Below, in pieces: positions 6,188 to 32,242 of a DNA stretch of 64,000 nt; position 1 is the first letter of the stretch; every line of letters begins with the position of its first letter. The stretch is from a virus. Made by a program: the position numbers and the translations under genes. The notes under the pieces are model-generated. The model ran no database searches and was not told where the DNA came from. It was given only the letters and a program-made list of their open reading frames with translations. The DNA is taken from IMG/VR virus record IMGVR_UViG_3300038443_001768, one strand, 5' to 3'.

Positions 6188-6211
6188 TCCTACAGCCCTG
6201 AGGAGCTATCC

Positions 6212-6406
6212 ATGTACTACAAGATCACCGAGGAGTTGCCCGACGGACGCGTCCGCGGACTAGGCCGCACCGGCGACCGCGAAGAGGCGCTGCGCATCTA
6301 TCACGCCGATCCGCGATGGGCGCGCACCCTTCATCAGTCGAGCACCCCGTTCCCGCCCGCTAAGGCGCAGCGAGGGGAGCTATCCAAGGCCTACAAGAAA
6401 GGCTAG
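6212..6406 (+). CDS. Hypothetical protein
   Basis: AGGAGCTATCC-ATG start. Confidence 0.7.
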   Translation: MYYKITEELPDGRVRGLGRTGDREEALRIYHADPRWARTLHQSSTPFPPAKAQRGELSKAYKKG

Positions 6407-6412
6407 TCCTGT

Positions 6413-6547
6413 ATGTCTCAGTCTCACGGCGGTTCACGTTCGCGCGGCGATGACTTCGCTGAGATGGTCTCAGTGATTCTCATGATTGCCGGGATCGCGC
6501 TGTGCGTGATCGCGCCACTCGTCGAAGTCATCAAGTCCATCATCTAG
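6413..6547 (+). CDS. Small membrane protein
   Basis: 44-aa ORF with one hydrophobic helix; GAAAGG SD. Confidence 0.55.
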   Translation: MSQSHGGSRSRGDDFAEMVSVILMIAGIALCVIAPLVEVIKSII

Positions 6548-6565
6548 CTCAGGGAGCTATCCAAG

Positions 6566-6802
6566 ATGTACAACAACCTCTTCAACCCCAACGTCCCCTA
6601 CCGCGCGGACGGCCATTGGTCGCTCCCGCTCAACCGGCGAGTCGCCTACGCCGACGAGCGCGCCGGTAGGATCGCCGAGAATGTGGCCAACCGGGAGCGG
6701 CTCGGACCCGTCGTCGCCGTCGATGGCGAGACCTATCAGTTCGACGCCTATGCGGAGCTACTGTCGGCCGCGTACCCCGGCCGGAACACCATCAACAACT
6801 GA
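6566..6802 (+). CDS. Hypothetical protein
   Basis: GGGAG SD inside the repeat motif. Confidence 0.65.
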   Translation: MYNNLFNPNVPYRADGHWSLPLNRRVAYADERAGRIAENVANRERLGPVVAVDGETYQFDAYAELLSAAYPGRNTINN

Positions 6803-6812
6803 GAGGATCGAC

Positions 6813-7043
6813 ATGTCCATCAACTACGCTCGCATGCAGCGTTCGCTGCCTCGCCTGAAGGCGGCGCTCACTCGCGCCGTCAAGAGCGGCGATCCTGCCC
6901 GCGTCGAGGCCGCGTGTCGCGCCGCTGTCGCCGAATGGGACGCCTGCGGGGCATGGCCGGACGATTGGTCGCGCTGGCAGCGCGCTCTCGACGATTCGCG
7001 TCCGCCGTGGGAGTGGATTCGTCTCGAAGACCTCAGCGCGTAG
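6813..7043 (+). CDS. Hypothetical phage protein
   Basis: GAGAGG SD; WPDDWSRWQRALDD motif. Confidence 0.7.
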   Translation: MSINYARMQRSLPRLKAALTRAVKSGDPARVEAACRAAVAEWDACGAWPDDWSRWQRALDDSRPPWEWIRLEDLSA

Positions 7044-7093
7044 CCGCGCGGGGCATCGGACCTCTCGGTGCCCCCTGCGAGTGCGAGCTATCC
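7035..7093 (+). repeat. 59-nt hairpin element, family 2 copy A
   Basis: AGCGCGTAGC-[variable stem-loop]-AGTGCGAGCTATCC. Confidence 0.85.
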
Positions 7094-7146
7094 AGGCCGC
7101 GCAATCCAGGCCGCGCATCAACTAGTCCTACAAGAAAGGCAACATC

Positions 7147-7545
7147 ATGGCCAAGCGTTCCCCTGACCGCGAGCGGTTCCTCGCCGACGTCATCGTGACG
7201 GCCGTCGAGGGCGGCATCGGCTACTGGTCGCAGGTCTCGGATTACCGTTGGTGGTCCGATCTGATCGGCGGGCACAACGCTACGGCGGTGTTTGAGACAT
7301 CGGTGATCGTCTACCCGCTGCTGGACGATGAGTCCGGCTACAGCGTCAACGGCGTCCCCGTCGGCATCGACTCGATCGCGCGCGCCATCGAGCGGATCAA
7401 GTCCGACCGATCCATTCGGCTCAGCGATGCCTACTTGGCGCGCATCCTGATCGCCGACCGTGACAACGACGCCGGGAACCTCGATTCCGACGACGCCGAC
7501 GTGATCGTTCAGGTAGCGGTGCTCGGTGACGTCATCTACGGGTGA
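7147..7545 (+). CDS. Hypothetical phage protein
   Basis: EGGIGYW...DADVIVQVAVLGDVIYG; GAAAGG SD. Confidence 0.75.
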   Translation: MAKRSPDRERFLADVIVTAVEGGIGYWSQVSDYRWWSDLIGGHNATAVFETSVIVYPLLDDESGYSVNGVPVGIDSIARAIERIKSDRSIRLSDAYLARILIADRDNDAGNLDSDDADVIVQVAVLGDVIYG

Positions 7546-7561
7546 GGCGGGGGAGCTATCC

Positions 7562-7771
7562 ATGTCTTACGACGCAATCCTGATCGAGTTCCGCGACCGC
7601 CGCACCGATCGCACCGTGTGGGCGGTCGTCGCTGATCGGATCGTTTGGTGCACCCCTACCGAGGTCACCTACATCAAGTGCGACAGTGGCGTGCGTCACG
7701 GGTCGCGCATCCTGCCGTCCGAGTACGTGGCGCTGCGCCCCTGCGTGGCCGATCGGCCGATCGGGCGGTAA
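7562..7771 (+). CDS. Hypothetical protein
   Basis: GGGAGCTATCC-ATG start. Confidence 0.65.
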   Translation: MSYDAILIEFRDRRTDRTVWAVVADRIVWCTPTEVTYIKCDSGVRHGSRILPSEYVALRPCVADRPIGR

Positions 7772-7793
7772 ACGACAACTAAGGGAGCTATCC

Positions 7794-7907
7794 ATGTCTG
7801 TCGTGTTCTTCATCATCAAGTGCCCGCGCTGTTCGTCTGAGGCGTGCGTCCGCGTTGGACGCACCGGTGTCTGCGGGCGCGGCCATCACGTCCGAGTCAA
7901 CCGCTAG
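7794..7907 (+). CDS. Small Zn-finger-like protein
   Basis: CPRC...C...C..GHH; GGGAGCTATCC-ATG start. Confidence 0.55.
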   Translation: MSVVFFIIKCPRCSSEACVRVGRTGVCGRGHHVRVNR

Positions 7908-7964
7908 CGCGTAGCCATCAGGGGCCAAGTCATAGGATTTGGCCTCGATGAGTGCGAGCTATCC
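7906..7964 (+). repeat. 59-nt hairpin element, family 2 copy B
   Basis: 58/59 identical to 12579-12637. Confidence 0.9.
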
Positions 7965-8001
7965 CACGCACTGCATGTCCATCAACAACTGGAGGTACTT
8001 G

Positions 8002-8178
8002 ATGTCCAAGTCGCAGTCGTTCACGTCCCTGTCGGCGGCGATGGGGTACCTGAAGGCCCAGGCTCGCGCGGAGGCGAACGCCGCCCACGCGGAGGACCTG
8101 AAGCGCGCCGCCAACCTCCGCCGGTCCGCGTCGATTGCCCGCAAGGCGCCCGGCACGGGACCGCGCATCGCCGCCTGA
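8002..8178 (+). CDS. Hypothetical protein
   Basis: GGAGG SD. Confidence 0.6.
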   Translation: MSKSQSFTSLSAAMGYLKAQARAEANAAHAEDLKRAANLRRSASIARKAPGTGPRIAA

Positions 8179-8225
8179 GCCGTCGCTCCAGCCAGTAGTC
8201 GGTTCGACACAGGTACCCCGGCGAC

Positions 8226-8289
8226 TAGCCGTCGCGGGCATCGGGTGAGACAATTCCGGTGCCCTCGATGGGTAGCCACGGAGCTATCC
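8226..8289 (+). repeat. Hairpin element, family 2 divergent copy C
   Basis: TAGCCGTCG-CGGGCATCGG...CCGGTGCCC-TCGATGG...GAGCTATCC; inner stem shared with copy A. Confidence 0.7.
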
Positions 8290-8778
8290 CAGCGACGCAG
8301 ATTGTTCTACAACAACAGGAGCAACGCCATGACCACCAAGATGACGCCCGACGAGGCGCGCAAGGTCACCCGTCCGCAGCCCCGGGCCGGTGATCGCTGT
8401 GTCTTCTACTCCGAGATGTTGCACGAGACCGTCGACTCCCATGGGCGGTGGTTTCTGGTGCGTGACTACACGGGCCAGGAAGTCACCGTCGTCCGTCACC
8501 TGCGAGGGGTCAACGACCCCGCCCCTGAGTACGACGGGCCGGGCGAGGACGACGTCGAAGACCACGACGCCGATGAGGGCGGCAAGGGGTGGTTCGAGTG
8601 CTCGCGCGGCTACATCGTCCGCGCTCTCGACGGACGCGAGTTCATGGTTCACGTCGAGGAAATCGACGGCTGGGACCGCGACCTTGGACAGTTCTACGGA
8701 CCCTCCGGTGTTTGGGGCAGCGTTGAGTAACGAGCTATCCCAGCGCAGCACAGATTGTTCTACAACAACAGGAGCAAC
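8281..8778 (+). repeat. ~45-bp leader direct repeat flanking one gene (8281-8325 and 8732-8778)
   Basis: GAGCTATCCCAGCG-N3/5-CAGATTGTTCTACAACAACAGGAGCAAC in both copies. Confidence 0.85.
8329..8730 (+). CDS. Hypothetical protein
   Basis: AGGAG SD. Confidence 0.7.
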   Translation: MTTKMTPDEARKVTRPQPRAGDRCVFYSEMLHETVDSHGRWFLVRDYTGQEVTVVRHLRGVNDPAPEYDGPGEDDVEDHDADEGGKGWFECSRGYIVRALDGREFMVHVEEIDGWDRDLGQFYGPSGVWGSVE

Positions 8779-9138
8779 ATGAAGACCTACGGTGAACCTG
8801 GCGGCGTGTACCTGACGTATGCGCTGAACCTCGATCGCGGCGCCTACGTGGTCGAGAACGAGGCCGGAGACGAGCTTTACGCGTCTGGCTCTGAGGCCGA
8901 CGCGCAGCGCTTCTGCGAAGACCTGATCCAGCGCGAGGCCGCCGCTCTCATGTACCAGTCGCAGGCGGCACGCGACGCTCAACGCGGCGGCTACGGAGGC
9001 CCTGCGTACTGGCAGTATCTGGACGACCATGCCTGCAAGATGCGCGACTACTGGCGCGCCCGTGGAGACGAGGAGCAGGCCGCCCTCATGTTGACCCGTT
9101 CGCTGGGTCAGGCGCTCGCTGGCAACGACGGCGAATAA
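8779..9138 (+). CDS. Hypothetical protein
   Basis: AGGAG SD. Confidence 0.7.
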   Translation: MKTYGEPGGVYLTYALNLDRGAYVVENEAGDELYASGSEADAQRFCEDLIQREAAALMYQSQAARDAQRGGYGGPAYWQYLDDHACKMRDYWRARGDEEQAALMLTRSLGQALAGNDGE

Positions 9139-9163
9139 CAACCTCATCAGTTAGGAGCTATCC

Positions 9164-9457
9164 ATGTCCTACAACTCAGACGGCGAGCGCACCGTCCTCA
9201 CTGACGACGCCTACAAAGAGGCGTTCGGTTGCGGGCGCGCCGCAGCCCGCGAGTACCTCAACAACCTCGAAGGCGCGACGCGCAGCGAGGCCCACTGCGA
9301 CGACGTGCGCGAGTCGGTCCACCCGCGGGCGTTCTCGGAGGCGTTGGACGCCCTTGAGGACTTCGCCGCCCTGCCCATCTCAGAGGCCGTCGATGACGGA
9401 ATCAACGAGGCGTGGAACGAATTCATCCACGACGTCGCAGTCAACGACTACATCTAG
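9164..9457 (+). CDS. Hypothetical acidic protein
   Basis: AGGAGCTATCC-ATG start. Confidence 0.7.
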   Translation: MSYNSDGERTVLTDDAYKEAFGCGRAAAREYLNNLEGATRSEAHCDDVRESVHPRAFSEALDALEDFAALPISEAVDDGINEAWNEFIHDVAVNDYI

Positions 9458-9466
9458 AACAACAAC

Positions 9467-9760
9467 ATGCCTAAGATCGCAGAGACCTACAACGGCTGGA
9501 CCAACCGGCCGACCTGGAACGTCAACGTCTGGCTTTCCAACGATGAGAGCCTCTACTGGACGGCCCTGGACGTGGTGCGTGGCTACAAGGAGCACACCAC
9601 CAATTGGTCCGCGAAGGGTGCGGGCCAAGCGCTGCGCGAACTGGTCTTCGCGAACCGCGACGACCGAGGCGGGTTCGGTGACCTGAGGCGCACCGAGCTA
9701 TCCAAGGTCAACTGGACCGAGCTTGGCGCGGCCTGGCTCGAAGACATCATCCACGGCTAG
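9467..9760 (+). CDS. Conserved phage hypothetical protein
   Basis: YNGWTNxxTWNVxxWLxND...VNWxEL motif common in phage early genes. Confidence 0.75.
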   Translation: MPKIAETYNGWTNRPTWNVNVWLSNDESLYWTALDVVRGYKEHTTNWSAKGAGQALRELVFANRDDRGGFGDLRRTELSKVNWTELGAAWLEDIIHG

Positions 9761-9899
9761 GACCATGAGCATCATCGACCTCATCGCACTGACCCAGGCC
9801 TCTCTACTGGAGAGCGTCTTCGACTTCTACTACGACAACCCAGCGCGCCAGCCAGGAGGCTGGCACCGCGCTATCCGCGCTCACATCAAGGCGTAGCAC

Positions 9900-10151
9900 A
9901 TGAACATGGACCCCAACATCGTCCTGCTGACCTACCAGGGAGTCGTCCGCTATCACGGACGGGTGGTTGTCACGGTCGGCGACGAGACGCTCTCGCAGGC
10001 CGTCGTACGCGCCCTGGACGCTGACCCCGACTTGCCGACGCCGCAACCGTGGGACCGCCTGCTCTTCCCGGACGCCGCGCCCGGCTCACAGTGGGCGACG
10101 CTGACGACGGAGCGGTTCCCGGCGCGCTCCATCAACCCCTTCAACGGCTAG
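9900..10151 (+). CDS. Hypothetical protein
   Basis: ORF in gene array. Confidence 0.6.
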   Translation: MNMDPNIVLLTYQGVVRYHGRVVVTVGDETLSQAVVRALDADPDLPTPQPWDRLLFPDAAPGSQWATLTTERFPARSINPFNG

Positions 10152-10160
10152 GACGACAAC

Positions 10161-10367
10161 ATGACACGCAAGGACTACGAGTCGATCGCGCTGGTGCTGC
10201 TGTCGGAGCGTTCGCGCTCGATGGGCGACGAGTTCGACAACGACGTTGCAGCCAAGGTGCTCGACAACGTCGCGTACGCGCTGGCCGTCGAATTCAAGGC
10301 CGACAACCCCCGGTTCGATCGGGACCGGTTCCTCATCGCGAGCGGCGCAACCCGAACCAGCCGCTAA
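10161..10367 (+). CDS. Conserved phage hypothetical protein
   Basis: MTRKDY...DNPRFDRDRF motif. Confidence 0.75.
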   Translation: MTRKDYESIALVLLSERSRSMGDEFDNDVAAKVLDNVAYALAVEFKADNPRFDRDRFLIASGATRTSR

Positions 10368-10400
10368 GCGAGCTATCCAAGTTCTACATCTAGGAGCAAC

Positions 10401-10643
10401 ATGAAGGCCTTTGTCGTCTACATCGACACCGACGAACTCTCCGCCGCCGATCTGCGGGTGGCGGTCATCCTGGGGGCTGATTGCGGCGCAGACACCGAGC
10501 CCGCCGTGACCGTCGAGAGGATCGTCTACGACGGTTACCGCCTCGATGTCCGCACCGGCGAGCGCTCCGGACCCAAAGCCCTCACCCTGCGCTACAAGGC
10601 GCAGCCGCTCAGCCATGGTTACGCCGACAGCGACCCCTTCTAG
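10401..10643 (+). CDS. Hypothetical protein
   Basis: AGGAG SD. Confidence 0.65.
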   Translation: MKAFVVYIDTDELSAADLRVAVILGADCGADTEPAVTVERIVYDGYRLDVRTGERSGPKALTLRYKAQPLSHGYADSDPF

Positions 10644-10649
10644 GAGTAC

Positions 10650-11186: not shown

Positions 11187-11197
11187 GAGCACACCCA

Positions 11198-11677: not shown

Positions 11678-11687
11678 GGGCAACGCC

Positions 11688-11969
11688 ATGAACTCGATCA
11701 AGTTCCAGGCCATCTCTGAGGCGGCGGCGCGCGACCTCGACGGCAACGTTGTCGCGGCCTTCGACCTCGCCGACGAGGACGGCTGCTATCCCGCGGCGCT
11801 CATCGCGTGGCAGGGACGAGCCCATCCGACTCGTCACGGCACCCACATGGCGGTCGTGCCGCCTGATCGCGCAGTCTATTTCGTCGATGGCGCGTACGAC
11901 TTCGCCGAATCCCTCGACGCTGTCAGTGACGCCTTCCATCGCTGGCTGCGCAAGAACCCCATCAACTAG
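11688..11969 (+). CDS. Hypothetical protein
   Basis: ORF in gene array. Confidence 0.65.
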   Translation: MNSIKFQAISEAAARDLDGNVVAAFDLADEDGCYPAALIAWQGRAHPTRHGTHMAVVPPDRAVYFVDGAYDFAESLDAVSDAFHRWLRKNPIN

Positions 11970-11983
11970 GAGCTATCCACGTC

Positions 11984-12578: not shown

Positions 12579-12637
12579 AGCGCGTAGCCATCAGAGGCCA
12601 AGTCATAGGATTTGGCCTCGATGAGTGCGAGCTATCC
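12579..12637 (+). repeat. 59-nt hairpin element, family 2 copy D
   Basis: AGCGCGTAGCCATCA-GAGGCCAAGTC-ATAG-GATTTGGCCTC-GATGAGTGCGAGCTATCC. Confidence 0.9.
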
Positions 12638-12662
12638 AAGCCCTACAACTAAAGGAACACCT

Positions 12663-12875: not shown

Positions 12876-12884
12876 GACATCAAC

Positions 12885-13277: not shown

Positions 13278-13279
13278 GC

Positions 13280-13540: not shown

Positions 13541-13549
13541 GGACCCTAC

Positions 13550-14463: not shown

Positions 14464-14474
14464 GGAGAAACAAC

Positions 14475-15008: not shown

Positions 15009-15021
15009 GAGGAGCTATCCG

Positions 15022-15293: not shown

Positions 15294-17708
15294 ATGGCCG
15301 ATGAGTACGAAGACGATAAGAGAATCCTCCTCGTCGAGGACACCAAGACACAACTCATCGATGCGCTGGCCGACCTGATGCTGATCCATGGCGGCGACGG
15401 CTCGAAGGTCCAAGACGAGATTGAGCGCGCCTGGTCGTCAGCGCACCGCCACTACGAGGCCGAGAAGGACGGCGACTCCGAGGGCTTCACGCTCATGGTG
15501 TGCGCGCAGGACGGCAGCCGCTCGGTTCCGCTGCGCGAGTGGGTGACGCGATGACCGGCCGACAGATCGGCACCGTCGAAATCCTGCGTCTCAGGATCTA
15601 CAACATCGACCCCGACGACGAGTACTCGGACGAGGTCGCGGTCGAGCCGGGCGAGTGCCCCGTCCTCGTCGAGGACGGCGTCTACTTCTGGCGCATGAGG
15701 GGCCGCCTCAGTCGCCGCGTCGGTGCTGACGTCGCGGCGCTCGGCGATGGAATGTTCATGGTCTCGCCAGGCGTTGACGTTCAGGTCGGCGACGAGATTG
15801 AGTTCTCGTCGCGTCGGTTCTCCGCCGATGAGTTCCAGGCGCTGCTCAGCGACGACGTTTGTCGCGAGGGTGACACCTCTCAGCGCCTGCGTTTCAACAT
15901 CAAGGAGGGGTATCTGCGATGAGACGCGTCAGGATCGAAGTCACCGAGTACTACATCATCGATATCGGCGAGGAAAACGACGGCACGGACGCCGTCCTGG
16001 AACTCGACGAGATGGACTCAGACGATCGTGCCGCCGCCTACCAAGAGCGGTACGTCAGGGTCTTCGATGACAACACTGGCGGCGAGTTGCCGGTCGATCG
16101 GACGGTCGTGTGATGCTGCTGACGTTCTCCGTGTACTCCGCGGAGCCCTACCCAATCAACGAGTCGTGGTATACGCTCGAAGAGGCTATCGAGGCCGAGT
16201 CCCACACCGTCGCCGCTGAGGCAAACGCGGATCACATCCCGGACCCGTCCGAGGACACGCGCGAGGCTTTCCGGCTGGAGGTCGTGCATGCCGCTACGGC
16301 GGCGTTGCAGCGGCCGGGCGACACCTACCGTGACCCGCTCGGGGTCGTGTGGTCGCTGGTCGAAGACCGCTCCCGAACCTAACGAAAGGACACCAAGATG
16401 AGCACCAAGTACGACGCCTACGTGGAGGCCATCAATCGCGCCGACGAGGCGATGCAGGAGGCGTTGCGCGTCTTGCCTCAAGACGCCAGCGAGCTATCCG
16501 TGCTGGTCACGAACGGAACGTTCCGTGACGTCCGTGCGACGCTCACGATGGCCTACGGGCTCCAGAGGGAGGCCCAGGATGGGACTCGCTGACATCGCCG
16601 CCCGCCTGGCGGCGTACGAGAACGAGGAACTCTCCTACGACGAGGAGGTCGAGTTGTTCCAGGAGTTGCTGGACACCGACGTGATCTACCATCTCCAGGG
16701 CTCGTACGGGCGCCGGATGCAGGAACTGATCGAGGAAGGGAAAGTGCGTGTCGCAGGAGGTAGCTGAGGTCGTCGTGTGGATCGAGACGCCGATCGACAC
16801 CATCAAGTACACCATCAGAGGGATCGCCCGGAATGATGGAGCGCCCCTGGGTGGCGTCTATGTCGAGCGCGAGACCGACGGCGGCGTCGATCAGGCGCAG
16901 GCCGAGGTCGTCCAGCACGGGCCTAGGCTTCTCCTGGACTTCATCCAAGGCTGGCTCAGCGAGAGCATCATCGATGATGACGACGAGCACGACCGGCGGT
17001 GGAATCAGCGCCCGGTGGGCCTATGGTCGCTGATCTGGCGGGCCTGGATGGACGCTGCGGGGGCGCCCACGGCGTGAGAGTTGTCCGGTATCTAGTCGAG
17101 CACATCGCGATCTGCGCAGGTTTCGTGAACGGAACCAGGCACTTCAACGAACGAAAGGACTGAGCAATGATGAGACTTGAGGAAACCATCACGGTGGAGC
17201 GAACTGGCCGCTCCATCGCCTACCGAGGCAGCTACCGAGGCGGCGTCCTCACCATCATCGACCATCGCGGGTACGTGATGACTCCCGAGGAGTTGGGCTA
17301 CGCGGTCGGCGACGAGGCATATGAGAGGTCCCTGAGCCTGCGTCGTAAGCGCGCGCTCGAACTCTGCAAGCTCATCTTCGGTGGCTTCGTTGCCGACGAG
17401 GAACGCGGTGACGACCAGGCCTCGTACTACGCGACCCGACTTCACCGCTTCCACCTGCGCGGTGTCGACCGCACCGAGCAGGGCGTACGCTGGGTGTGGG
17501 AGTACGAGACCTTCTCCCCCTACACGGACTGATGATCGTTCTCGGCATTTTCTGCGTCGTCGTGGCGAGCGGGGCGCTGATCCTCGCAGGCGACGCATTC
17601 GTGCGTTCGGTCGATGATCTCAATCCCGTGCCGCGTGTCCTTGCTGCGCTGGCCCTGTCTGGGCTATGCGCGATCTTCATCTACCTGGCCGCGCTGTGCT
17701 TGGCTTGA
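15294..17708 (+). other. Run of small translationally coupled hypothetical genes (15294-15554, 15551-15922, 15919-16113, 16110-16382, 16398-16592, 16579-16767, 16748-17077, 17167-17532, 17532-17708)
   Basis: ATGA/GTGA overlaps and SD sites; 16579-16767 has an LQGSYGR motif typical of phage small proteins. Confidence 0.65.
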
Positions 17709-17740: not shown

Positions 17741-20700
17741 ATGACGACCTGGAACCCTGTCATCGATCTGCCCAGCGGCCACCGCGTCTTCGCTGGAGGC
17801 GGGCGGTTCGCCGTCGCCGACGAGTCCGGCTCGTGGCCACATCTCACCGATGACGGCGTGCTGTGGCTGGACTTCGACCGCCCGCTCACGCTGGGCGAGG
17901 AGGCCAGCGAATTCGTGCCGCGCGACCGCGTCATGCCAATGATCCCGCTGAAGCGCGAGGACGGAACCGAAACCCGCACCGTCGCTGACGCGGCTTCGAT
18001 CGTGGCGTTGTCGCTGCGCTTCGATTGGGGCATCAACGTGCGGGGGACGCTGTTGAGGGCGGTGCGCGCATGAGCAGCAACGACGCCATCAACCGGGTCG
18101 CCCTGGCGCTGCGCGCGGCGTGTTGCGCGCATCCCGACCAGCGGGTGATGCAGGTACTGGTCAACGCATGCTGTGGTGTTGACCCGTTCTATCTCGAAGA
18201 CAGCGAAGCCGAGCAGGCGCTGCGCGCATACGCTGAGAAGGCCGAGTAGGAGCTATCCATATGCTGATGAGTTTCGGACTCCGCCTCACCGGCTACTACG
18301 GCGACTCGCCCGCCGAGGAAGGCGGCTACGACGGCTACCGCGTCATCAAGTCCATCAACTTCTCACTACCGATGGTCGAACCCGGTGATGTCGACGCAGC
18401 CATCGACGCCGTCAACGTCGAGGAGAAGGCGCTCTCGCAGATCGACTCGTTCATCTCGTGGTGGGTGACTGCTGAGCGTTTCGAGTGCTACACGCTGATC
18501 GAAACGGAGCGCCAGCGGTCGTTCTTTCGCTACGAACTTCTGCGCGCTCTGACCCACGCACTGGACGGAACCGATGACAGCTGCGTCTTGTACCGCTACG
18601 AGATGACAGACGAGTCGTGTTTCGTGTCGACACTGCGCCTCTACAACACCACAGACGATGCCTGATCGACGCACCCGACTCAACGACCTCGTCAATGTCT
18701 ACCATCGCCGCCATTACGGCGACTACGACGACATGTACGAGGACTTCGAGCAGACCTATCTCGCCGAAGACCACGACGAGAGTCTCCCGATCCCCCGGTA
18801 CGCGTCTATCGCGGGTGACGAGACTTACGGGAAGATCACACTGTTCGATGACATCAACGAGGCGCTCGCCGATCAGGCCGCAACCAGCGACAACGGTGAG
18901 TACCTCAACGTCCCGGAAGGAATCATCGACCTCGACACCGGCGACGAGGTCGAGACCGTGACGCGCACATTCCTGAAGGCTGACTACGACCGCCTGCGTG
19001 CGGCGTTCGACGAGTCGTCGCCCGACGACGTCGGCAGGGCCACCAAGATCGTCGCCATCGCCGACGACATGTTCAACAGAAAGGACAACACATGATCACC
19101 GCCATCGAAGCCACGGAGGAGCACATCGAGCAGGCCCTCGACGCGCTCAACAAGATGTCCCTCATCGTCCGCAATGACATGCTCATGCGGGGCGAATACC
19201 TGACGCCCGATATCGTCGATTACGAACTCGCCAAGAAGGGCGCGATCTGCGGAGGGCACAAGGCCTGCGCCGTGGGGTCGCTCTATCTCGCCGCCGGGGT
19301 TCGCCGCGAGCGTCGCGAATTGGCCTGGTCGCTGCCCGGAGCCTACCCGCACGAGCGCCCGTACTTCATGGCCAGTCGCCCCGCGTTGCGTGTCGCCTAT
19401 GAGGCGCTCAACGCAGCCGCTGAGCGATACTGCGGGCGGCATGGTATCGACCTCGACAACTACACCCGCTACGACGCCATGACCAACGAGGCCGGGATGT
19501 TGGAACGCCTCTTCGAGGCCACCTACGTCGGCACCGACGACGTCGTCATCGACGCGGCGGTCGAGCTTCCCAAGATCATCAACAGCGCTAAGCGCGCGCT
19601 GCGTCGTCAGGCTGCGCTCGCGGCCTGATCTACACCAACAACGAGAGGATCATCCCGCATGCACAAGATCATCAACAACAAGTCCCCGCGTCCCGGCCAG
19701 CCGAACCCGTACATCGAGCGGAGTCTCGACGTGCTGACCAAGCTGTGTGCGTCGGCAACGCCTCAGACGCGCGAGGCGCTCGAACTGTCCACGTTCCGGG
19801 CGCTGTCGCTGCTGGAGAACAAGCTCATCAAGCGGGTTGCCGTTCACCACACGGGTCAGGCCGGGCGGCCGGCGTACCTGTACGCGCCGACCGCCAAGGC
19901 GCGCCGAGCCGTGGAGGACCGGCTCCGCAGCGGGCGCATCGTGCGTCGGGGGCGTCGCCTGGTGGTGGTGTCGTGACAGGCTCGACGTTCCCAGAACAAA
20001 GCGGAGGCGACGCCTTCGACTTTCTCGTCCACGATCGCATCACCATCTGCGCGCGCTGCGGGTACGCGGCCTGGCGCGACGGTTACCCCTGCAACCGCTG
20101 CGGCGGCCTGGAGCCCCGGGTCTACGTACCGCTCTCGGAAGTCTCCGCTTTGCTGGGGGATCAGGCCCACCCCGACTGGTCCGACTACGTCGCCACGAAC
20201 CTCCTCGATGCGCTTGAGCAGGTCCCAGACACGGGCGACTGGCACGGCGCGCTGCGGGCGTGGTGCGGCGCTCGGATCAGCGGCAAGCTCGCGCCGAACC
20301 GGACAGGCGCATCAGGCCAGAAGGGCAGGCCGAGCGATGCATGATCCGCACGACTACACGATTGAGGTGTGCCGTGTTTGCGGAGCGCAACTCAGCCTCT
20401 ACGGGAACGGGCGGTGTCCAGTCGATCGCGCGCACTGGCGAGTCGGCGGCATGGCACGTCGTCGCGCGGCCTGAAGCTCAGCAGGATCGGCACTATGGCG
20501 CGGCCGTGATCTCGCCCGAGGCGAAGACATTCGCGGCTCCCACGTTGGCCGACAACCAGGAGGAGGAGCAATGAAGGTCTACAACTACAAGGATGGTGTT
20601 CGGCGCGCCGTTGTGCGCGTCGAGCATCACATCGATTTCAACTGGCTCGTCTGGACCGCAGCCAACCTCATCGATGGCGTCGTCGACGCTGGCGATGACG

Positions 20701-22532
20701 ATGTGGTCGAGCAGGTCGAGGAGGCAGCCGCGGAGTTGACCCGCCGTGATGTCGAGCGGCGGCTTCGTAGTAACCTCGCGCTGGACGGCGAGGGATGGAT
20801 CGATTTCCAGGACGAGCGAATCAGCCTTGCCGCCGAGACCTGGGACGGCCACTTCGACTACAACGAGGAGATCGTGCCGCTGTTGGTGGCGCGCCTCCAG
20901 ACCTTGTTCCCTGAGTTCAAGGAGCCAACATGAGGCGCTCGCTGTTGTTTTGGTTGTTGTTGGTCGCGGCTGTCTTTTGTTTCGTGATGGCGGCGGTGGT
21001 CTACGTGCGTGATCACCGAACGACCATCACTGTGTCTTCGGATGAGCGCGTGCCAGCACTGAGCCAGGCGCTGGCGAAGCGGGCCGCGCCACTTCCTGAG
21101 CGCCTCGCGTACTGCGATTTCATGCGTCCGTTCGGTACGTTTATGTCGAACACGCAAATCATGTGCTGGGAACGAGCGCTCGATTGGCGGCGTACATGGC
21201 CTCAGGTGAAGGTCCTGTGCCGCCGTCGTGGGCTCGTATGCTGGCAGAGGAGGCTGCGGGACAGATGAGCTATCCCAGAATCATCATTCTCAGCCTCGTC
21301 GGCCTCTTGCTGCTGCCTTCGTCGACGCTGGCGCAGCGGCACACACTGGGTCAGGGCGCGGCCGTATCCAACTACGGCGTCACAGTCGCTGGGCAGCAGA
21401 CGTCACCTACAATGACGGTGATCTTCACGGGCCAGCAGCGGTATCCGCACGGACGATGGGTGCTGCGCTTCGCGCAGGTAGCGGCCGACGACACCAACAT
21501 CGTATATGTGCCCGTGGCGGCACATCCATGTCCTGGGCCGTATTACGTTGTACACCTCATAGGTGAACAGGCTGAGTGTTTCGCAGCCTTCACCGATACG
21601 ATTCCAAAGGAGGTCATCGCATCGCTAAGACAGAACACGTGATCGGTCGATTCGCGGTCGTCCCAAACCACATCTATGGACCCTCCGTGATATGCCGCGG
21701 GTGGGGGCTGGTGGACTCCTGTCCGTCGGCGGAGTCGGCGGAGCGCATCGCCGCGGCCCTGAACGCGCTCATCGTAGACGCCGACGCGCTCACATACTCC
21801 TACGGCATACCTGAACTCAACGCCCTCGAAGAGCGCGAGAAGGACCGCGTGATTCGCGCACTTGGTCGTTACATCAGAATGCGCTGAATTCAATGCAGCG
21901 TTCGACGCACTTGACTCGCGTCGCCTCGGCCTGGTAGGTTGCACACGGCATGCGCTCGGGCCGACCCGCCCCGGCGTGTGGACCAACAGCGGGGCCTGAG
22001 GGGCGCCCAGCACAGGGGCGCCTCTCGGGTTCCCGAGGCCGGGCAATGCGAAGGCTCTACCGAGACATTCTCCGCCGTCGATCCGCCACCAGGCGCGAAC
22101 CCGACATGGCCGCCTATGAGGCCTTACGGAGAGCCGCATACGATGCGTTCCGTGCCCGCCAGAGCGGTCTCCACGTGGGTCGGCCGCTCCACCATCGCAG
22201 ACCTCGTGATCTCTCGTAGCGAGCTATCCGCCGCCGCACGTCGCAACGACGCGCTCGTCGCGGCCGGCGTCCCCATTGATCGCCTGTTAGCGGACCTGAA
22301 CATGGAACCGCGCTCCTTGATCAGCGTTGCTGAGCAAAGAGCCCTGCGGATCGCACTCCTTCACGACGGCTGGACAGAGACCGAGTTGGACGTCATGGGA
22401 AGCATGCTGCGTCCGCAGCGCGTCCGCCTCGAAGAGGCCACGAGGTTCTGGATGCCTACCTTCTGCGCACTCGTCATCGACGGCGCTGCGCTTGTCCGTC
22501 GGGCTGAGCAGACTTACTCATCCCGCGCCTGA
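17741..22532 (+). other. Run of hypothetical genes (17741-18073, 18070-18249, 18261-18665, 18658-19095, 19092-19628, 19659-19976, 19973-20344, 20571-20933, 20930-21268, 21265-21642, 21639-21887, and one ending 22532)
   Basis: Coupled ORFs. 19659-19976 is winged-helix-like (GRPAYLY); 20930 and 21265 have signal/TM N-termini. Confidence 0.65.
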
Positions 22533-22921: not shown

Positions 22922-24238
22922 ATGTCCACGCAGAGTGCAACCGAGACCACCAAGGGGCAGGTCGTGCTCGTCGCCATGGAGAGCGGCAACATCGACACGA
23001 CGTGCTACCGAGGGTCGGCACCGCTGTCGGCGCTGTCGGCGATCTCACAGGCCGACGTGTTCGACCAGGTCGCCAACCCCGGCGGCCTTCAGCGCGACCT
23101 GTCGCCGAAGCACGCCAGCGACGCCTACAACTACGCCAACCGCGAGCCGAACCCGGAGTTCCCGCGCGCGTTCCCCGAGGTGATGCTCAACGTGCGAGAC
23201 GAGGACGTCGTGTCCGTCGAGGCCATCAACACGGGCCGCCAGCGCCAGATCAAGGTCATCAAGTTCGCCTTCGATCTGAGTGCCATCGACGACGCCATCA
23301 AGGAGGGCCGGATCGCCGTGTCCCGCATGGACGGCAACCACCGGCTCTGGTTCGGCAACGGCGATGACAAGAACCGCGCCCCGGTCGACACGGTGGTGCC
23401 GTTCCAGATCCACGTCGGCCTGACGCCGGAGCAGGAGGCCAACCTCTTCACCGACGTGAACGCCAACCAGAAGGGGCTCAACTCCTCCCACCTCCACGTC
23501 CTGCGCTCGCGCCTGACGCCGGAGGAGCAGGAGCTTCGCGACCACCCGGAGCGCGTGTTCGCGCTGCGCCTCTCCGAGGACACGGAGTCGCCGTGGCACG
23601 ACCTCGTCCACATGGGCGGCTCGAAGCAGGGCTCGCGTGCGGCCGGGCAGGAACGGCCGGTGTCGTTCGTGACGCTGGAGCAGGGGATCAAGCGGATGCT
23701 CAACAAGTCCGTCTACATCCACGACCTGCCCAACCCGAACGCGCAGTACGTGCTGATCCGGAACTTCTGGAACGCCGTCCGCGCGGAGTTCGAAGACCAG
23801 TGGCAGAACCACAAGGAGTTCCTGCTGCTGAAGAACCTCGGTGTGCTGTCGCTGTCCATCTTCGGCGGCACGGTCATCGACCGCTCGATGGCGCGCGGCG
23901 AGGTCACCGCCGAGGCCATGCGGGGCTACATCACGCAGGCCAAGGACGTCTTCGACTGGCACAAGGACGCCAAGGGCGAGCGTTCCCTGGTCGGTATGTC
24001 CGGCAACCGGGCCGCGCTGATCGTCTCGGGCGAACTCGCGAAGGACCTCGTGGACCCGGGCGAGTCGGCCATCGTGCAGTCGCTCCAGGAGCGTCTGCTC
24101 GCCGAGGCCGGCACGATCCCCGACGAGATGCCCGCCGAGTGGGAGCGCCGCCCCGACGTGGCCGACCTGGTCGCCGCCGGGGTCCGGGCCTCGGTCGGCG
24201 GGCTTGAGGACGACGGTCAGGAGCCTGACCAGTCGTAG
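22922..24238 (+). CDS. DGQHR-domain (DndB-like, ParB/Srx fold) protein
   Basis: GLQRDL...FPxxxLN...MDGNHR...EQEANLFTDVNANQK motifs; AAGGAGG SD. Confidence 0.85.
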   Translation: MSTQSATETTKGQVVLVAMESGNIDTTCYRGSAPLSALSAISQADVFDQVANPGGLQRDLSPKHASDAYNYANREPNPEFPRAFPEVMLNVRDEDVVSVEAINTGRQRQIKVIKFAFDLSAIDDAIKEGRIAVSRMDGNHRLWFGNGDDKNRAPVDTVVPFQIHVGLTPEQEANLFTDVNANQKGLNSSHLHVLRSRLTPEEQELRDHPERVFALRLSEDTESPWHDLVHMGGSKQGSRAAGQERPVSFVTLEQGIKRMLNKSVYIHDLPNPNAQYVLIRNFWNAVRAEFEDQWQNHKEFLLLKNLGVLSLSIFGGTVIDRSMARGEVTAEAMRGYITQAKDVFDWHKDAKGERSLVGMSGNRAALIVSGELAKDLVDPGESAIVQSLQERLLAEAGTIPDEMPAEWERRPDVADLVAAGVRASVGGLEDDGQEPDQS

Positions 24239-25465: not shown

Positions 25466-28400
25466 TGAGCAACACCGTCCGGCTCACCAGCACTCACGGT
25501 GAGGTCCGCTACGGCAAGAGCCTGTCCACGGACTTTCAGCGTGTCGCCGACAGCACCGGCGAGGCGTGGCTCGCCGAGGACATCGACTGGTCTGACCGCG
25601 ACGACTACCCGCGCTGGTTTGTCCCTCGCGGGGAGCGCGCACCGCAGGACGGCCCCTGCTGGGTGGGCAGTGTCCTCATGACACATGACGGACGCGTTCG
25701 ACGCGACGTGGGCTACTCCGAGGCGCAGATCGCCGCCATCGTGGAGGCTGGGGCCGTGGCGTTCAGTGCTGTCGAAGCTCAGCGCTACGACGATGACGTG
25801 ATGCGCCCGCTCTACATCGATTGGAGCGCGGCGTCGAATTCGGACCGGAAAGGAACTCTGAGTTGTTCTCCCTGACCATCCAACTCGGTAACGAAGCGAT
25901 GCGAACGCCGAGAGATGTCGCTCGGTCCCTGTACCGGCTCGCTGACCATCTCAACGACGGTGGCGACTCGGATGGCTACGTACGCGACGACAACGGCAAC
26001 ACCGTAGGTCGCTGGACCGCCGAATGGCCGATCGTGGGAGACGATGAGTGATGCCATTCACGCTTGCTGATCCGCCGCCGATTGAGCAACTCGATCACAT
26101 CATCGTCGCCGCTCACCGCTCGGTCGTCTACAGTCGGTTCGATCCCGAGCGGGCGTGGATTCTCTTGACCTACATCAACGGAACAGGGTGGGCCATGTGG
26201 GGCTCTGAGCCCAACGAACAGGTTGCACGCAAGACCGCGTTCGAGCGCACCCGGCGGACAGGGTATCGCTACGCCGTGATCGCCTACTCGGATCTCGCTG
26301 AGCGCGACCAAGCACTACTGGCCTCGGCCCGAAAGAACGCACGATGAGATACAAGGCACGACTCCTCTACGCGGATGGCGTGTCGACGATGGTGACGATC
26401 GACATCCACGATGACGTCTCCTCGCCCGAGGCGGCGCGCGCGGCAGCCGAAAAGTATGCCTTCGACGAAGGCGCACAAGTCGACGACGTCTTCATCGACG
26501 GCGCGACGATACTGGTGTCGCCGTGTCTGGAAGTCTTCTACGACGGACTCGAAAGGGGCACCCTGTGAGATACATGGCCAAGCTCGTCTTCGACGACAAT
26601 ACCGACATCGACGTCGCGATCGACATCGACACCAACGAGGTCGACAACCCGCGCATGCTGGCCCAGTACGCGGTCGGGGCCTACGCTGAGCGTCTCAACG
26701 CCCGCATCGATCGCGTCTGGCGCGACGAGGCCCACCTCTTCGTCTCCAACGGCGCGTGGTATGAGCGCGACGTCGAGGGCTACGTCGAGAGGGGCGCGAT
26801 GTGACTGTGTCGGCTCCGCCATCGTCGTACCAGGCCGGGGTCTCGGTCAGCGGCCAGAAGGTCCACGCCGTGGCGCCCGGCACCGTGGTCCGCAACCCCT
26901 TGACGTTCGCGCGCGAGGCGCGCTCCCTCTGCGGCGAGGACGTCGTCGCGGTGCCACGCGAGCACTTCGACCCCGATAACGAGGCCGCCTGCTGGCGATG
27001 CGTCAGCAGCGTTCGCCTGCTTCGTGGTCCAGGCGCCTAACCGCTCAACGAAAGGAACCAATCATGAGCTTCAAAGTCGAGGTGATCGCAGACAGTTCCG
27101 GCAAGTGGTACAGCAACGCCGTTCGCTTCGCCACAGCCCCGGAGGCAGAGGCTGCGGGTCACGATCTTGCCGGCCGCTGGGCACTGGTTCAGGAGTGGCG
27201 CGTCGCTGAGTCCGACGAGCCCGTCAACTACATCTGGCGGGCCGGCCAGGCGGTGCCGGTCTAATGTTCTGGGCGAAAACGCTCCGAGGCCGCGCGTGGG
27301 CTGACTCGGTTCCCGCGCGCACCGAGACGTCGGCCCCGGTGGGGACGGCCCCGGCGCGTGTCCTGATCGGCATCCAAGACGACGGCCACACCGTAACCGG
27401 TGTCATGGACGTCGACGAAGCAGTCGACCTCTATCGAGGTCTCGGCATCGCGATCCGTGACGCGGGCGGTGAGGTGCCGAAATGAGAGAGATTCGTTACG
27501 AAACCACATCCAACGACCGGACGCTGAAGATCAAGCGGATCAAGGTATGCAAGACCGGCGCTCGCTACGACGACATCGTTGACGAGCTTGAGATCGAAGA
27601 AGAACGCGACGGCTCGTTCAGCGTCTACATGGATCACTCAGACGGCGACCCTGACGACAACAGATGGGCCGACATCACCATTCGTAGAGAGGACGCACTC
27701 ATGCTGTTTGAGTGGCTCGCTACCAAGGAAGGAGGAGCGCGCAGCGCATGACCGTGCACCACTTCACGTTTCAGCGCATCGTGCATGGAGACGACGTCGT
27801 CGAGATCGGCAAGGTGCTCGATCGCCTCACCCAAGAGGGCCGAGAGGTCGTGTCAGCATCGCACTCCGTGTACACGATCACCACCTTCAATCAGACCTAT
27901 ACGTATGTGGATGTCGTCGTAGTTACGCGCGAGGCCGAGACCACGTATGAATCAAGGACTACGTATGAGCGAGACCTCATCAGCCGCATGGAGGACTGGC
28001 TCGGCGTCCACGAAGGCTACATCGACGAGCACGAGGACGAGTACCGCGCCCTCCAGCGAGAGGTGCGCGTTTACCTGAGAGGAAACCAATGACCCGCGCC
28101 ATCACACCCAGCGAGGCCGCTGACCAGGCAGCGGCGGCACCGAACATTCCGGATCAGGTCTTCGAGGTCTTCAACGAGTTGATCGTCAAGAACCTAAGAG
28201 ACGGCGAGGCGCACGTCCTTCTGGACGATGCCGTGACCGCAATCTCAGGCGCGCTAACCGTGGAACGGCAAGACGTCCTCGACAACCACTGGCTTGACGT
28301 CGAAGACGCCTACCGCGTCCAGGGCTGGGTCGTCGATTACGACAAGCCCGGCTACAACGAAACCTATTCAGCGTTCTTCACCTTCAGGAGACCTCGATGA

Positions 28401-30070
28401 CCGACATGATCCATGCCGACGTGGTCGCCCAGCGCGAGCTATCCCTGCGGCGGCATCTCAAGACCATCAACCCGACCTGGCCGACCTACTATGTCGGCGT
28501 CGCCGAAGAGGCTATCGCGGCCGTCGAGGCTGGCGAGGACGACTTCAAGATCACCATGCCGGGCGGACGAACCGTGACGGCCGAGAACGTGATCTCTGCG
28601 TTTTCGCTGAGTGGGTTCATCGAGGTCGCCAATGACTGACACCCCGTCGATCGAGGCGCGGTCCAGGCGAGACGTCACGTACACGCTGACACCGACGGGT
28701 GACCGAGAGATCGACACGCTACGGCTTTGCGTGCTGGCCCTCAACAACCTTGACGACCCAGCGACTGTTCGCGTTGTCCGGTACCTGTACGAGCGGTATC
28801 CAATCGTTCCCGCTGCCCCAGAAAGGAAAACATGAAGTGAGCACGCCAGACCCATATCGCGCCTATAAGATCGGCTCAGCAACAGCCGCGCTCAACGTAG
28901 CGTCGGAAGCGCTGGGAACGGCCTTCATGAGCCTCCTGTCACTTGAGGGCTACGACTCCGCTGTCGTGGTCGCCGTGCGCGAAGCCCAGGACGCGGTTCG
29001 GCGAGCACAAGGAATTACCCTTGACTGGCACGAGAAGGACGACTGAATGAGCGCGCCGCTGAAGTTTCCGCTCACGCTCTACGTGTGCCCGGCCTGTGAG
29101 ACGGTCGACCAGGACCAGGACTACACAGGCGGGCACGACTTCAACACGCACCCTGAGTGCCACCGCAACCAACGCGTCCCTGTCCGCGTCATCGCCTTCG
29201 ATACCGCTGTGTGGGTGCTGACGACAGCACTCGTCGGCGCTGGCATGCCGCGTCAGCGCGCAGAGGTCACGGCGATCGAGCTACTCAACGACGCTGAGCG
29301 CATCGCCGACGTCACCGCTCAGCCATATCGAGAGGAGGAGCTATGAAGGTCTACGCAGCTTATGTCTACAACGGAGCGAGCCCGCCGCACTTCGTGGGCG
29401 TGTACTCAACATATGCGAAGGCCTTGCTTGCGTCGAGCCCACGCATCGACGACATGGTCAAAGAGTTCGAGATCGAGCCCGACGACCGCTCATTCCCAGC
29501 GATCTCTGGGACCATCACGGCGTGCGAGAACTGCAACGTCGTCCTCGCCCGTGACGGCGAGGTCGTCGGTCGACATCCGGGCACCGTGTGTTCGCACCTG
29601 CGCGGCGGGACCTACGTCAATCTCAACTCTGTCGTCGACGCCGTCATGGACGCGCAGGCGGAGTTGCAGACCCCGTTGGGGTTCTACCGCATGTATAACC
29701 CCAACTACAAGCACGCGTTGCCAATCGAGTATGACGAGGAGATCGAAGACCGGCTGGCGAAAGCACTTGCACAACTACACGCGCTGCTCGTCGCCCTGGG
29801 CACGCCGATGTATCAACCCGCCACCCACGAAGAGGTCGAGTCGATCGACCTGAAGCCAAATCCGTGAAGGTCTACGTGGCCTTTCATAGAGGCGAATTCT
29901 TCGGCCACGACGTGCCGCCCGGACCGAGTTCGTTCGTCGGCGTCTACGCAACGCGCGAGGAGGCGCTACGTCACTGCTGGCCTGAAGGCGACTCGCAATT
30001 TGTCGAAGAGCGCGAACTTGAGGCTGCTCGCGAGGAAGAGCCGTCGTTCCCGCAATGGAACTTCCCTTGA
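25465..30070 (+). other. Run of ~18 small coupled hypothetical genes
   Basis: Includes 25465-25875, 26048-26347, paralogues 26344-26568/26565-26804, 27064-27264, 27482-27751, 27748-28092, 28089-28400, 28397-28639, 29047-29346, paralogues 29343-29867/29864-30070. Confidence 0.65.
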
Positions 30071-30095
30071 CATCAGCCCGCAACTAGGCTAGGGT
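30067..30095 (+). promoter_or_regulatory. Sigma70-type promoter, leaderless gene
   Basis: TTGACA-N17-TAGGGT, 7 nt before ATG 30103. Confidence 0.6.
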
Positions 30096-30311
30096 CATCG
30101 CCATGACGCCGGAGCGCGCCTTCCATCTGTTCGGAGACGTGCTCTCGAATCGTGACATCAGGATCTTCTCGCGCAGCGATCTCGCCCACGGGCGCGTGTG
30201 GTTCGTCCACGCCACCGTCGGCGATGAGACGCGCGAGGTGTTCCAGACCAACGATCCCAGCTTGGCGGCGCGTTGGCGCGAAACCTACACCCGACTGGAA
30301 AGGAACGCTCA

Positions 30312-30656
30312 GTGAAGAAGAGAATCTTCAAATACTCTCTTGAGGTCGAGCCGCGCCAGATGCTTCATCTTCCGGCAGGGGCAGAGCTTCTCTCGGTGAT
30401 CGCCGACGCCCTCGGGCCGAAGCTGTACGCGCTCGTAGACCCAGAGGCGCCGGCCGAGCCGCGCATCCTACGCACCGTCGTTGCCGGCGAGGTCGTCGAA
30501 GGGGACGCGCTCGACGCCTACATCGGGACCTACGTGGTCGGTGAGGGGCGCTTTGTCGGCCATCTGTTCGAGCAGGCGACTGGCGTCGGCGACGAACGCG
30601 ATCGACGTTGGGACGCCGACATGGCCGACCTGCGACGCGAGTTGGTGGCCTCGTGA
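30312..30656 (+). CDS. Conserved phage hypothetical protein
   Basis: IFKYxL...LPAGAELLSV...YIGTY...HLFE motif. Confidence 0.7.
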   Translation: MKKRIFKYSLEVEPRQMLHLPAGAELLSVIADALGPKLYALVDPEAPAEPRILRTVVAGEVVEGDALDAYIGTYVVGEGRFVGHLFEQATGVGDERDRRWDADMADLRRELVAS

Positions 30657-30948
30657 GCGGGCTCCCGCTCCGGCAACAAACTGTCCGCGACGATGACAGC
30701 GCCTATCCCGGCGGCGTGACGTTCCGGCCGTTCACGGCCGTCGCCGCTGAGGGTGCCCGGATCGCGCTGTTCACCTGTGATGCGTGCGGCGCGACCGTCA
30801 TGCTCGACCCGCGCGAGGAAGACGGCAATCCGCTCGAAACGCATGCCGAGTGGCATGCCGCTTTCACGACACAGCGCCTGTTCAAGCGGTGCGCGTACTG
30901 CGGGCTCACGCGGCTCTGCGAGTGGCGCGGTCGCGGCCGATGGATCTG

Positions 30949-30996
30949 CGACGGCTGCTGGGACGAGACAACCGACGGCTGCTGGGACGAGACAAC
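30949..30996 (+). repeat. 24-bp perfect tandem duplication in a CDS (DGCWDETT x2)
   Basis: CGACGGCTGCTGGGACGAGACAAC twice. Confidence 0.9.
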
Positions 30997-31561
30997 CGGC
31001 GGCGGCGATGCGACAGACGCTCCGGCCGAGAAGTGAACGCCTGATGATCTGGGTCGCCGTAACGGCGCTGGCGTGCCACAACGCCTATCTACTTAGGAAG
31101 ATTCACCAATCAAATCTACGGATCGACACAGCCTGGGACGCATGGCGATCCGACATCCCGTTGATCAGGCAGCGTGTCGCACGCCTGATCGGTAAGGAGA
31201 TCTAAGTCTATGCAGGACAGTCGTTGGTACCCAACAGTGGTGACTGTGACACTTTACTGGGACGGCTTCACCGACCGTGATATCGAGATCCTCGAAGAGA
31301 GCGACTTCGAGGTCGTTCGCGAAAGCAACTACCTCGTCCTGGAGCGCACCGTGAGTGGAAACTGTGACGCCGTCGCTAACGCAGGCATGATACTGCGCGA
31401 CGTCGAAGACGCCCTCGTAGTCCTCGATATCAGCGTCTTTGAGGTGTCGATCGTGGCGAGAAAGGCGGCCGTGTAATGGTCTTCGTTGCGTTGGCGCTGG
31501 TAGTGCTCTTTATCGCGCTCTTCTGCGGGTTGCTTATCGCGATGATCGATCGGATGTCGTG

Positions 31562-32242
31562 ATGCTCCCCGACGACCTCATCGAGCGGCTTCGAGACGGC
31601 GATGATCCGCTCCACATGGCGAAGAAGCTGCTCCGATCGGGACATGATCTCGGACGCCACGATAAGAGCGCCGCCAACTGTCACGTCATCGGTCTCGACT
31701 CGATCGTGCTCTTCGACTTCGGCGGGCGCGGCATGATTCGCTACTACGACTACTCGATGCTCGACGGGTCACTGAGCAGCCTCTACAACGAGGACGGCGG
31801 CTTCACGATCGGTGTGCACAATCACCGCTACGAAATCGCCAAGATCCCACTCCTGGGCTGCTACGCCAACGTCACCACCGCGGTCGACGAGACCGACGGG
31901 CGCGGCCGAATGCTGCTGCATGAGCACGAATTCTCATCCGGGATCGACGGCGAGCTTGGAGTCACGTATCGCGACGCACGCCTGATGCGGCCCTTCGATG
32001 TCGAGGTCATGATGCCCGGCTCGTCGGTAATCATGCAGCCTGAGGATCTCCACACCGTTGTCGTGCCGCGCCGTCAGCGGGCCGCTTGGATGGTGATCGA
32101 GGGCTCGCGACGCGATGACATCACACCGCTCTTGTATTCGCCGACCAGAGACCTTGTACTCAACTCCGATCACCTCTACCAGCCCATCCATGGTCGCGCT
32201 AAGTCGGCGATCGGCAAGCTCATTGAGGAGCTATCCGAGTGA
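31562..32242 (+). CDS. Putative cupin-fold protein
   Basis: HNHRYEI and EDLHTVVV motifs. Confidence 0.5.
   Translation: MLPDDLIERLRDGDDPLHMAKKLLRSGHDLGRHDKSAANCHVIGLDSIVLFDFGGRGMIRYYDYSMLDGSLSSLYNEDGGFTIGVHNHRYEIAKIPLLGCYANVTTAVDETDGRGRMLLHEHEFSSGIDGELGVTYRDARLMRPFDVEVMMPGSSVIMQPEDLHTVVVPRRQRAAWMVIEGSRRDDITPLLYSPTRDLVLNSDHLYQPIHGRAKSAIGKLIEELSE

Follow-up and report, generated by a model that had tools for sequence, protein, structure and literature searches.

A selected one-strand octamer in the early arm of an uncultured phage family, and a small basic head-module protein as its candidate reader

The viral DNA stretch of 64 kb analysed here (IMG/VR record IMGVR_UViG_3300038443_001768; the window) carries many copies of a nine-letter word, GAGCTATCC, all on one strand of the early arm. 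Sequence comparison indicates that the word, with its invariant eight-letter core AGCTATCC, is under selection and is a real recognition signal. It is a feature of a family of uncultured soil and freshwater phages, in which it keeps the polarity of the early arm, declines in density along that arm and co-occurs with a small basic protein encoded behind the portal gene. The word, its family range, the gradient of density as the inverse of distance and the candidate reader appear to be undescribed.

Results

A k-mer count on both strands of the whole window found 21 exact copies of GAGCTATCC on the + strand and 0 on the - strand, the same number and strand as the initial annotation had claimed. 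Shuffled versions of the window contain 0.46 +/- 0.73 copies on both strands together (maximum 3), and GAGCTATCC is the top over-represented word among the 8- to 10-mers of the window. The copies divide into 14 at 6203-12629, 5 at 15012-22221 and 2 at 28436 and 32228, with 0 elsewhere, which reproduces the split first described; the GC content of about 66% given with it needs correction to 61.9%. Variants of GAGCTATCC with one mismatch are at background in the window (4 on +, 5 on -) and recognition of AGCTATCC therefore looks all-or-nothing. A literature search for the word sequence gave no phage paper among the matches listed.

Selection acts on the exact bases. The comparison relative and proxy for the window phage was the genome G001 (PolA 91% identical; 82% mean identity). 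Of the 15 word sites that can be aligned between the two, 14 are identical throughout, whereas the figure for random 9-mers is 30%. In the family as a whole, 21 of 29 Glu-Leu-Ser triples in early genes use the word as their codons, and 0 of 26 elsewhere do. Taken together, these two results mean that codon or ribosome-binding site (RBS) bias cannot be the source of the word. The word does resemble an extended Shine-Dalgarno (SD) sequence and some leaders are duplicated, as would be expected if it had arisen incidentally from local duplication or from bias in RBS or codon use. As a main cause this is refuted by the codon test and by the retention of the word across the family in unrelated flanks and frames, and we regard it as extremely improbable. 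Where the two phages differ by the gain or exchange of a gene cassette, copies of the word often stand at its borders (window 6203-9163 compared with G001 33593-36586).

The core AGCTATCC marks the early arm in all sufficiently covered relatives except one, G018. Counts on the + and - strands are 20/0 (G001) and 18/0 (G007) for the 9-mer and, for the 8-mer core, 16/1 (G017), 7/1 (G019), 23/0 (G020:C22), 18/2 (G033), 11/0 (G034), 18/0 (G035), 14/1 (G038), 4/0 (G042), 7/0 (L026), 4/0 (L028), 5/0 (L041), 9/0 (L072) and 10/0 (L073). Distant members of this family have core proteins 31-50% identical to those of G001, and GC content spans 54-68%. Pair scans of IMG/VR, which have limited sensitivity, found clear dispersed arrays in this family alone, other multi-copy matches being tandem repeats or 3-4 scattered copies. 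L029, L067 and the short head-region contigs are without the word, but the dense early zone is outside their coverage and they are uninformative. The early arm of G018 is covered from its start, yet has no word; since its sister is the word-positive G019, the loss in G018 is derived.

Polarity follows the arm and not every local gene. Copies within or beside reverse-strand gene blocks keep the orientation of the arm (L026:14505, G17 18815, G20 18352 and 18859, L041 2263 and 3063, L068:2577), although several are at homologous positions and thus not independent. This arm-level polarity makes a DNA-level signal likelier than an RBS or RNA site. We favour a polar signal acting at the level of DNA, with an RNA-level role through read-through transcription as a possibility. 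The 7 reverse copies (G003, G017, G019, G033, G038) are mostly found past the early zone, in replication genes; those in G003, G017 and G019 number 4 where 0.7 are expected, which common codons may explain.

The cumulative count of sites is linear in the logarithm of distance from the start of the arm, with r of 0.98-0.998 when the origin is fitted. For the window r is 0.996 and the origin about 5.5 kb, with density falling approximately as 1/distance. The fitted origin in G020 coincides with a strong predicted promoter.

The family profile of 157 sites has no conserved flanking position other than a G at -1 (128 of 157) and a weak A at +1. Five extensions of the word to AWG-NN-CTACA had been reported and are present, but they are specific to the lineage and leave no trace in this profile, so that the periodicity of CTA at 11 bp, or one helical turn, that was read into them is not supported. 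The word occurs in all three reading frames; 54% of family sites are not fully coding compared with 17% of background, and 32 of 157 (20%) lie 0-6 nt ahead of a start. No fixed spacing to a -10 box or a start was found, with offsets to predicted sigmaA starts ranging from -67 to +25, and the sites show no bias in RNA pairing (paired probability 0.52 vs 0.51). Two copies fall in promoter spacers, one reverse (G003 10287) and one forward (G20 6637).

Within the window, where every copy is on the + strand, the word is fused to the SD sequence at 6203..6211 (ATG at 6212), 6554..6562 (ATG 6566), 7553..7561 (ATG 7562), 7785..7793 (ATG 7794), 9155..9163 (ATG 9164) and 15012..15020 (ATG 15022). The fusions ahead of 6212, 7562, 7794 and 9164 had been predicted, as had copies read as Glu-Leu-Ser inside open reading frames (ORFs) at 9695..9703 (ORF 9467-9760), 16491..16499 (ORF 16398-16592), 22221..22229 (close to the N-terminus of the ORF ending at 22532) and 28436..28444 (ORF 28397-28639); all are present, and each of these in-gene copies is conserved in G001. 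Glu-Leu-Ser is also encoded at 6377..6385, close to the 3' end of ORF 6212-6406 and 27 nt upstream of ATG 6413, and at 32228..32236, where it ends ORF 31562-32242 and the word also provides the SD of GTG 32239. The word adjoins a stop and an SD at 11970..11978 (GTG 11984) and 18250..18258 (ATG 18261), lies directly past the stop at 8730 at 8732..8740 (38 nt upstream of ATG 8779) and crosses a stop/start junction at 21267..21275, with a Met-Ser-Tyr-Pro reading in ORF 21265-21642. The copy at 10370..10378 is intergenic, 22 nt upstream of ATG 10401.

Three window copies end a 59-nt hairpin cassette, a lineage-specific feature, by forming its 3' foot: 7085..7093 (cassette 7035-7093), 7956..7964 (7906-7964) and 12629..12637 (12579-12637, a 98% copy of 7906-7964). 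When folded, the word closes the long RNase III-like stem of these cassettes. The copy at 8281..8289 is directly 3' of a long hairpin (8222-8280). One extra 8-mer core, which lacks the G at -1, is found at 42893..42900 (+) at the start of ORF 42889-43050 and may be due to chance.

The candidate reader comes from the head module. Directly downstream of the portal gene is a gene for a basic protein of 51-66 residues, about one-third of them Lys or Arg and only 1-2 acidic, with an Arg-rich N-terminus. The gene does not lie in the window; its presence was verified in G001 (131159-131359, minus strand), G002 and G007. When profiles of all shared accessory proteins were compared with the genomes in six frames, this was the sole accessory family present in every word-positive genome with a head region; it was found in nine (G001, G017, G019, G033, G034, G035, G036, G038, G042). 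In the word-negative G018 it is cleanly missing at its locus behind the portal. The G001 and G033 proteins are about 60% identical, compared with 31-43% for core proteins of the same pair. Three new contigs of more than 36 kb, representing two independent phages, were recovered by means of the basic protein, and in all three the word is present and oriented as predicted. Among candidates for the reader of AGCTATCC, the basic protein is the best, as yet unproven.

Other candidates fared less well. The readers originally named were a DGQHR (DndB-like) gene (22922..24238, +), which is absent from six word-positive genomes (G017, G019, G033, G034, G035, G038), and a winged-helix-like ORF (46473..46820, +), which is absent from four (G017, G033, G034, G038); the former was rejected, the latter rejected as universal reader. 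A WYL protein in that role is missing from word-positive near-complete genomes, and HNH, as universal reader or nickase, was found in G001 and G017 alone. The T5orf172/MUG113 nuclease (58588..59229, +) is not universal, either as candidate nickase or as reader, being absent from G033 and G038 and present in the word-negative G018. This nuclease occupies a fixed locus; its N-terminal part is AP2-like, but in G018 and G019 a Cys-rich N-terminus takes its place. The structural model of the nuclease is poor (predicted local distance difference test, pLDDT, 56). A 70-residue protein (34595..34807, +) accompanies the word in several relatives but is missing from G033, G034 and G038, and is a secondary candidate at most. 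Its model (pLDDT 82) has three strands and two helices with weak matches, the best at Z 5.3 and those to AP2 and lambda-Int domains at Z 3.3-4.0. The 139.5 kb of G001 (99% complete) contain 0 reverse copies, and this rules out for G001 another suggestion, a small RNA acting in trans with a perfect complement, except one antisense to a site. The wider view of the initial annotation stands: the word is not merely an RBS (32 of 157 sites at starts), is polar, selected and confined to the early arm, and both early-gene shut-off and a directional DNA signal are live readings.

Discussion

We tentatively propose that AGCTATCC sites are stoperator-like docking sites for the basic head-module protein, which we consider the most probable of the explanations weighed here, though still less likely than not. 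The core, with G preferred in front, would be an asymmetric DNA site kept in one orientation along the early arm. Its reader would be encoded by the phage in the late head module and, made late, would occupy between 5 and 25 sites, many of them at RBS/start junctions and most closely spaced towards the upstream end of the early operon. Docked protein would be a polar roadblock to both elongation and initiation and would thereby silence the early arm; packaging of the protein along with the DNA may also occur. The observed distribution, with the highest density upstream and on RBS junctions, fits such a roadblock. A more elaborate version seems to us rather unlikely: a protein of about 50 residues without known relatives would read the polar word, cover the early arm in graded fashion, travel inside the virion and silence or shield the DNA used first.

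The closest precedent for a roadblock is found in Cluster A mycobacteriophages, whose operators and stoperators (L5 gp71, TipsytheTRex repressor) number more than 20; these sites are asymmetric, share the orientation of transcription and in many cases lie in short gaps between genes (PMC9283540). In that system a monomer can read an asymmetric site; the sites are 13 bp long and tolerate substitutions, the phages are temperate and the repressor has 183 residues (PMC9283540). The phages described here resemble Cluster A in having many asymmetric sites oriented with transcription (21/0 in the window, with relatives alike) that follow the arm, not every local gene. They differ in that the sites are restricted to the early arm with a 1/x gradient and in that no such repressor was seen among the Pfam matches listed. 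Other differences weigh against our proposal, as do several features of the basic protein. These can be summarised as (i) the core is 8 bp, near-invariant and without conserved flanks, unlike the 13-bp L5-type consensus, and looks more like an enzyme site than a stoperator; (ii) the family is apparently lytic; (iii) no relatives of the basic protein were found in Pfam, PHROG or the PDB, and it may be a non-specific, protamine-like DNA condenser; (iv) the link between gene and word depends on one loss (G018) in one family, shared ancestry being able to explain the rest; (v) in G045 the basic-protein gene is present but the word is missing from 8.7 kb of rightward genes, which may or may not be early arm.

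In an alternative that we hold to be unlikely, though well worth considering, a core nuclease would make programmed single-strand nicks at the word while the DNA is packaged, and virions would carry nicked DNA like those of Pseudomonas phage tf, Rembedalsseter and T5. The tf motif is a near-exact 9-bp word on one strand with 11 of 14 sites in the genome's left half (PMC3517423), and the tf/Rembedalsseter-type motif is kept across 61 phages of little DNA similarity, often at gene starts (PMC11780129). The present word matches this anatomy, and that of the LUZ24-like and T5 interruption motifs, in being near-exact, on one strand, skewed to the early end and family-wide at low DNA similarity. Near-matches are not enriched in the window and the family is T5-like in plan, with an HK97-type head and tRNA arrays, which also speaks for nicking. 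However, the sequence is not that of the tf-type consensus TACTRTGMC or the T5 consensus, and sites approach to 16-57 bp (G017, G020, G033, G038) where in tf the closest nicks are separated by 1.5% of 46 kb, or about 700 bp (PMC3517423). Motifs of the tf family are 88% coding, like background, whereas non-coding placement is enriched threefold here. In four Logan contig sets, contig breaks near word sites are explained by stretches common to several strains. No accessory nuclease is universal, given the distribution of HNH and T5orf172 above. The explanations weighed here are not fully exclusive, as the basic protein could guide a core nuclease.

Readers supplied by the host, or acting on RNA, are less probable again. 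A Chi-like or KOPS-like (FtsK orienting polar sequence) signal of a host helicase-nuclease or translocase would accumulate close to whichever DNA end is exposed or is first to enter, and we give it a small chance. Like the Chi sites of the LLS-type lambdoid phages and MD8, of which 20 of 23 in LLS and 32 of 32 in MD8 share one orientation (PMC12315714), the word is an octamer in a single orientation; it also appears to cluster towards one end and to thin out from there. Its invariance in phages of such varied GC content fits a host reader, and there is no recombinase among the Pfam matches listed for the window or G001 (for G001, 25 of 36 families). Chi, though, is a host word abundant in the chromosome, while arrays of this word were seen, within the sensitivity of the scans, in this phage family alone; a host reader also leaves the joint loss of the word and a phage gene unexplained. 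The Chi sequences of E. coli and B. subtilis do not match the word. A still smaller chance goes to an RNA-level target, with AGCUAUCC in early transcripts read by a RegB-like endonuclease or an Arg-rich RNA-binding repressor, or serving in RNA processing cassettes. The word keeps to the sense strand of the early arm throughout, 32 of the 157 sites overlap the spacer between SD and start, folded cassettes have the word closing their stem, the N-terminus of the basic protein is Arg-rich, and G018 has T-loop hairpins and an SD-like repeat before its first genes instead of the word. Copies antisense to local reverse-strand genes would, however, matter only with read-through transcription, the promoter-spacer copies are difficult to accommodate and no overall bias towards pairing or unpairing exists.

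Other known elements share single features with the word. Start Associated Sequences of Cluster K mycobacteriophages and Microbacterium cluster EF are also conserved words at the RBS position (PMC7302621, PMC4351075), but only 20% of the present sites are at starts and many are within genes or antisense to them. A phage-specific promoter element would be expected to have a conserved flank or fixed spacing, and the word has neither. T4 RegB reads 4 nt plus an enhancer, with GGAG in the SD sequences of early genes. The word similarly overlaps GGAG in early-gene SDs, but GGAG is outside the invariant core and no RegB-like gene was seen among the family matches.

One-strand word arrays in phage early arms, whether nick motifs, stoperators or Chi clusters, are an old puzzle; the function of nick motifs is unknown, as is the enzyme in tf-like phages. 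Were the basic protein to bind the word, it would be among the smallest sequence-specific phage DNA readers and would represent a non-temperate use of stoperator logic. If the nick or Chi reading is true, those systems extend to a large uncultured, probably actinobacterial, phage family.

The phage, its likely host and neighbouring features

The window is the early-to-replication arm of a siphovirus of about 140 kb, with a SNF2 helicase, a Pam3-gp34 protein resembling single-stranded DNA-binding protein, an archaeo-eukaryotic primase (AEP), an intein-containing helicase and PolA. The phage occurs in soil and rhizosphere metagenomes; no close cultured phage was found. G001 (139.5 kb, 99% completeness) has an HK97-type head, terminase, tRNA arrays and RNA repair genes. 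Neither integrase nor repressor is among the Pfam matches listed for the window or G001, and the G001 list (25 of 36 families) has no sigma factor or RNA polymerase. A host among Actinomycetota is suggested by an Rpf-type transglycosylase in a relative, leaderless-type promoters and short regions of similarity to genes of Mycobacterium and Streptomyces phages. G020:C22 (L063-L064), a 31-kb family contig, comes from a GTDB genome labelled Saccharibacteria, atypical at 2.8 Mb and probably misbinned; relatives of that bin gave no word signal.

No sigmaA-like + strand promoter was found in window 1-17700 even at low threshold, while ten strong TTGACA-type promoters lie at 17.7-43.7 kb; G001 is likewise. 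Transcription of the first ~45 window genes is unexplained by sigmaA-like promoters, which G017, G019 and G020 do have in the dense zone. Two more long RNase III-like hairpin cassettes with shared flanks (4195-4260 and 5468-5551) precede the early genes, the latter on the + strand near the fitted gradient origin (~5.5 kb) and upstream of a DUF7178-like gene. Further upstream, a divergent gene-free region (1300-2900) with many CCTAGG and TCTCACG repeats is a candidate origin or terminus.

A degenerate tRNA-Ala-like structure (2890-2975) heads the early arm; ARAGORN calls its G001 counterpart (L019:8448-8526), not that of the window. Complementarity of the word to tRNA positions 5-13 was considered, and the base at -2 does not extend the match. 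T-loop hairpins are also present at 5490 and 26136. In oriented G018 (436-3902, L054 region) a T-loop minihelix and a repeated SD-like word precede about 10 of the first early genes, possibly as tRNA-mimic processing signals. Another family member has a permuted gene resembling transfer-messenger RNA adjoining its tRNA array (L196:1731-2212).

The intein of the window helicase (54085-56277) contains a LAGLIDADG domain and is missing from G001; a free-standing LAGLIDADG gene (59412-59783) is found ahead of polA. A nicotinamidase-like gene with probable phosphoribosyltransferases (window 43065-43673; G001 99058-100197; G017 74443-75846) is likely to be a salvage module for nicotinamide adenine dinucleotide (NAD).

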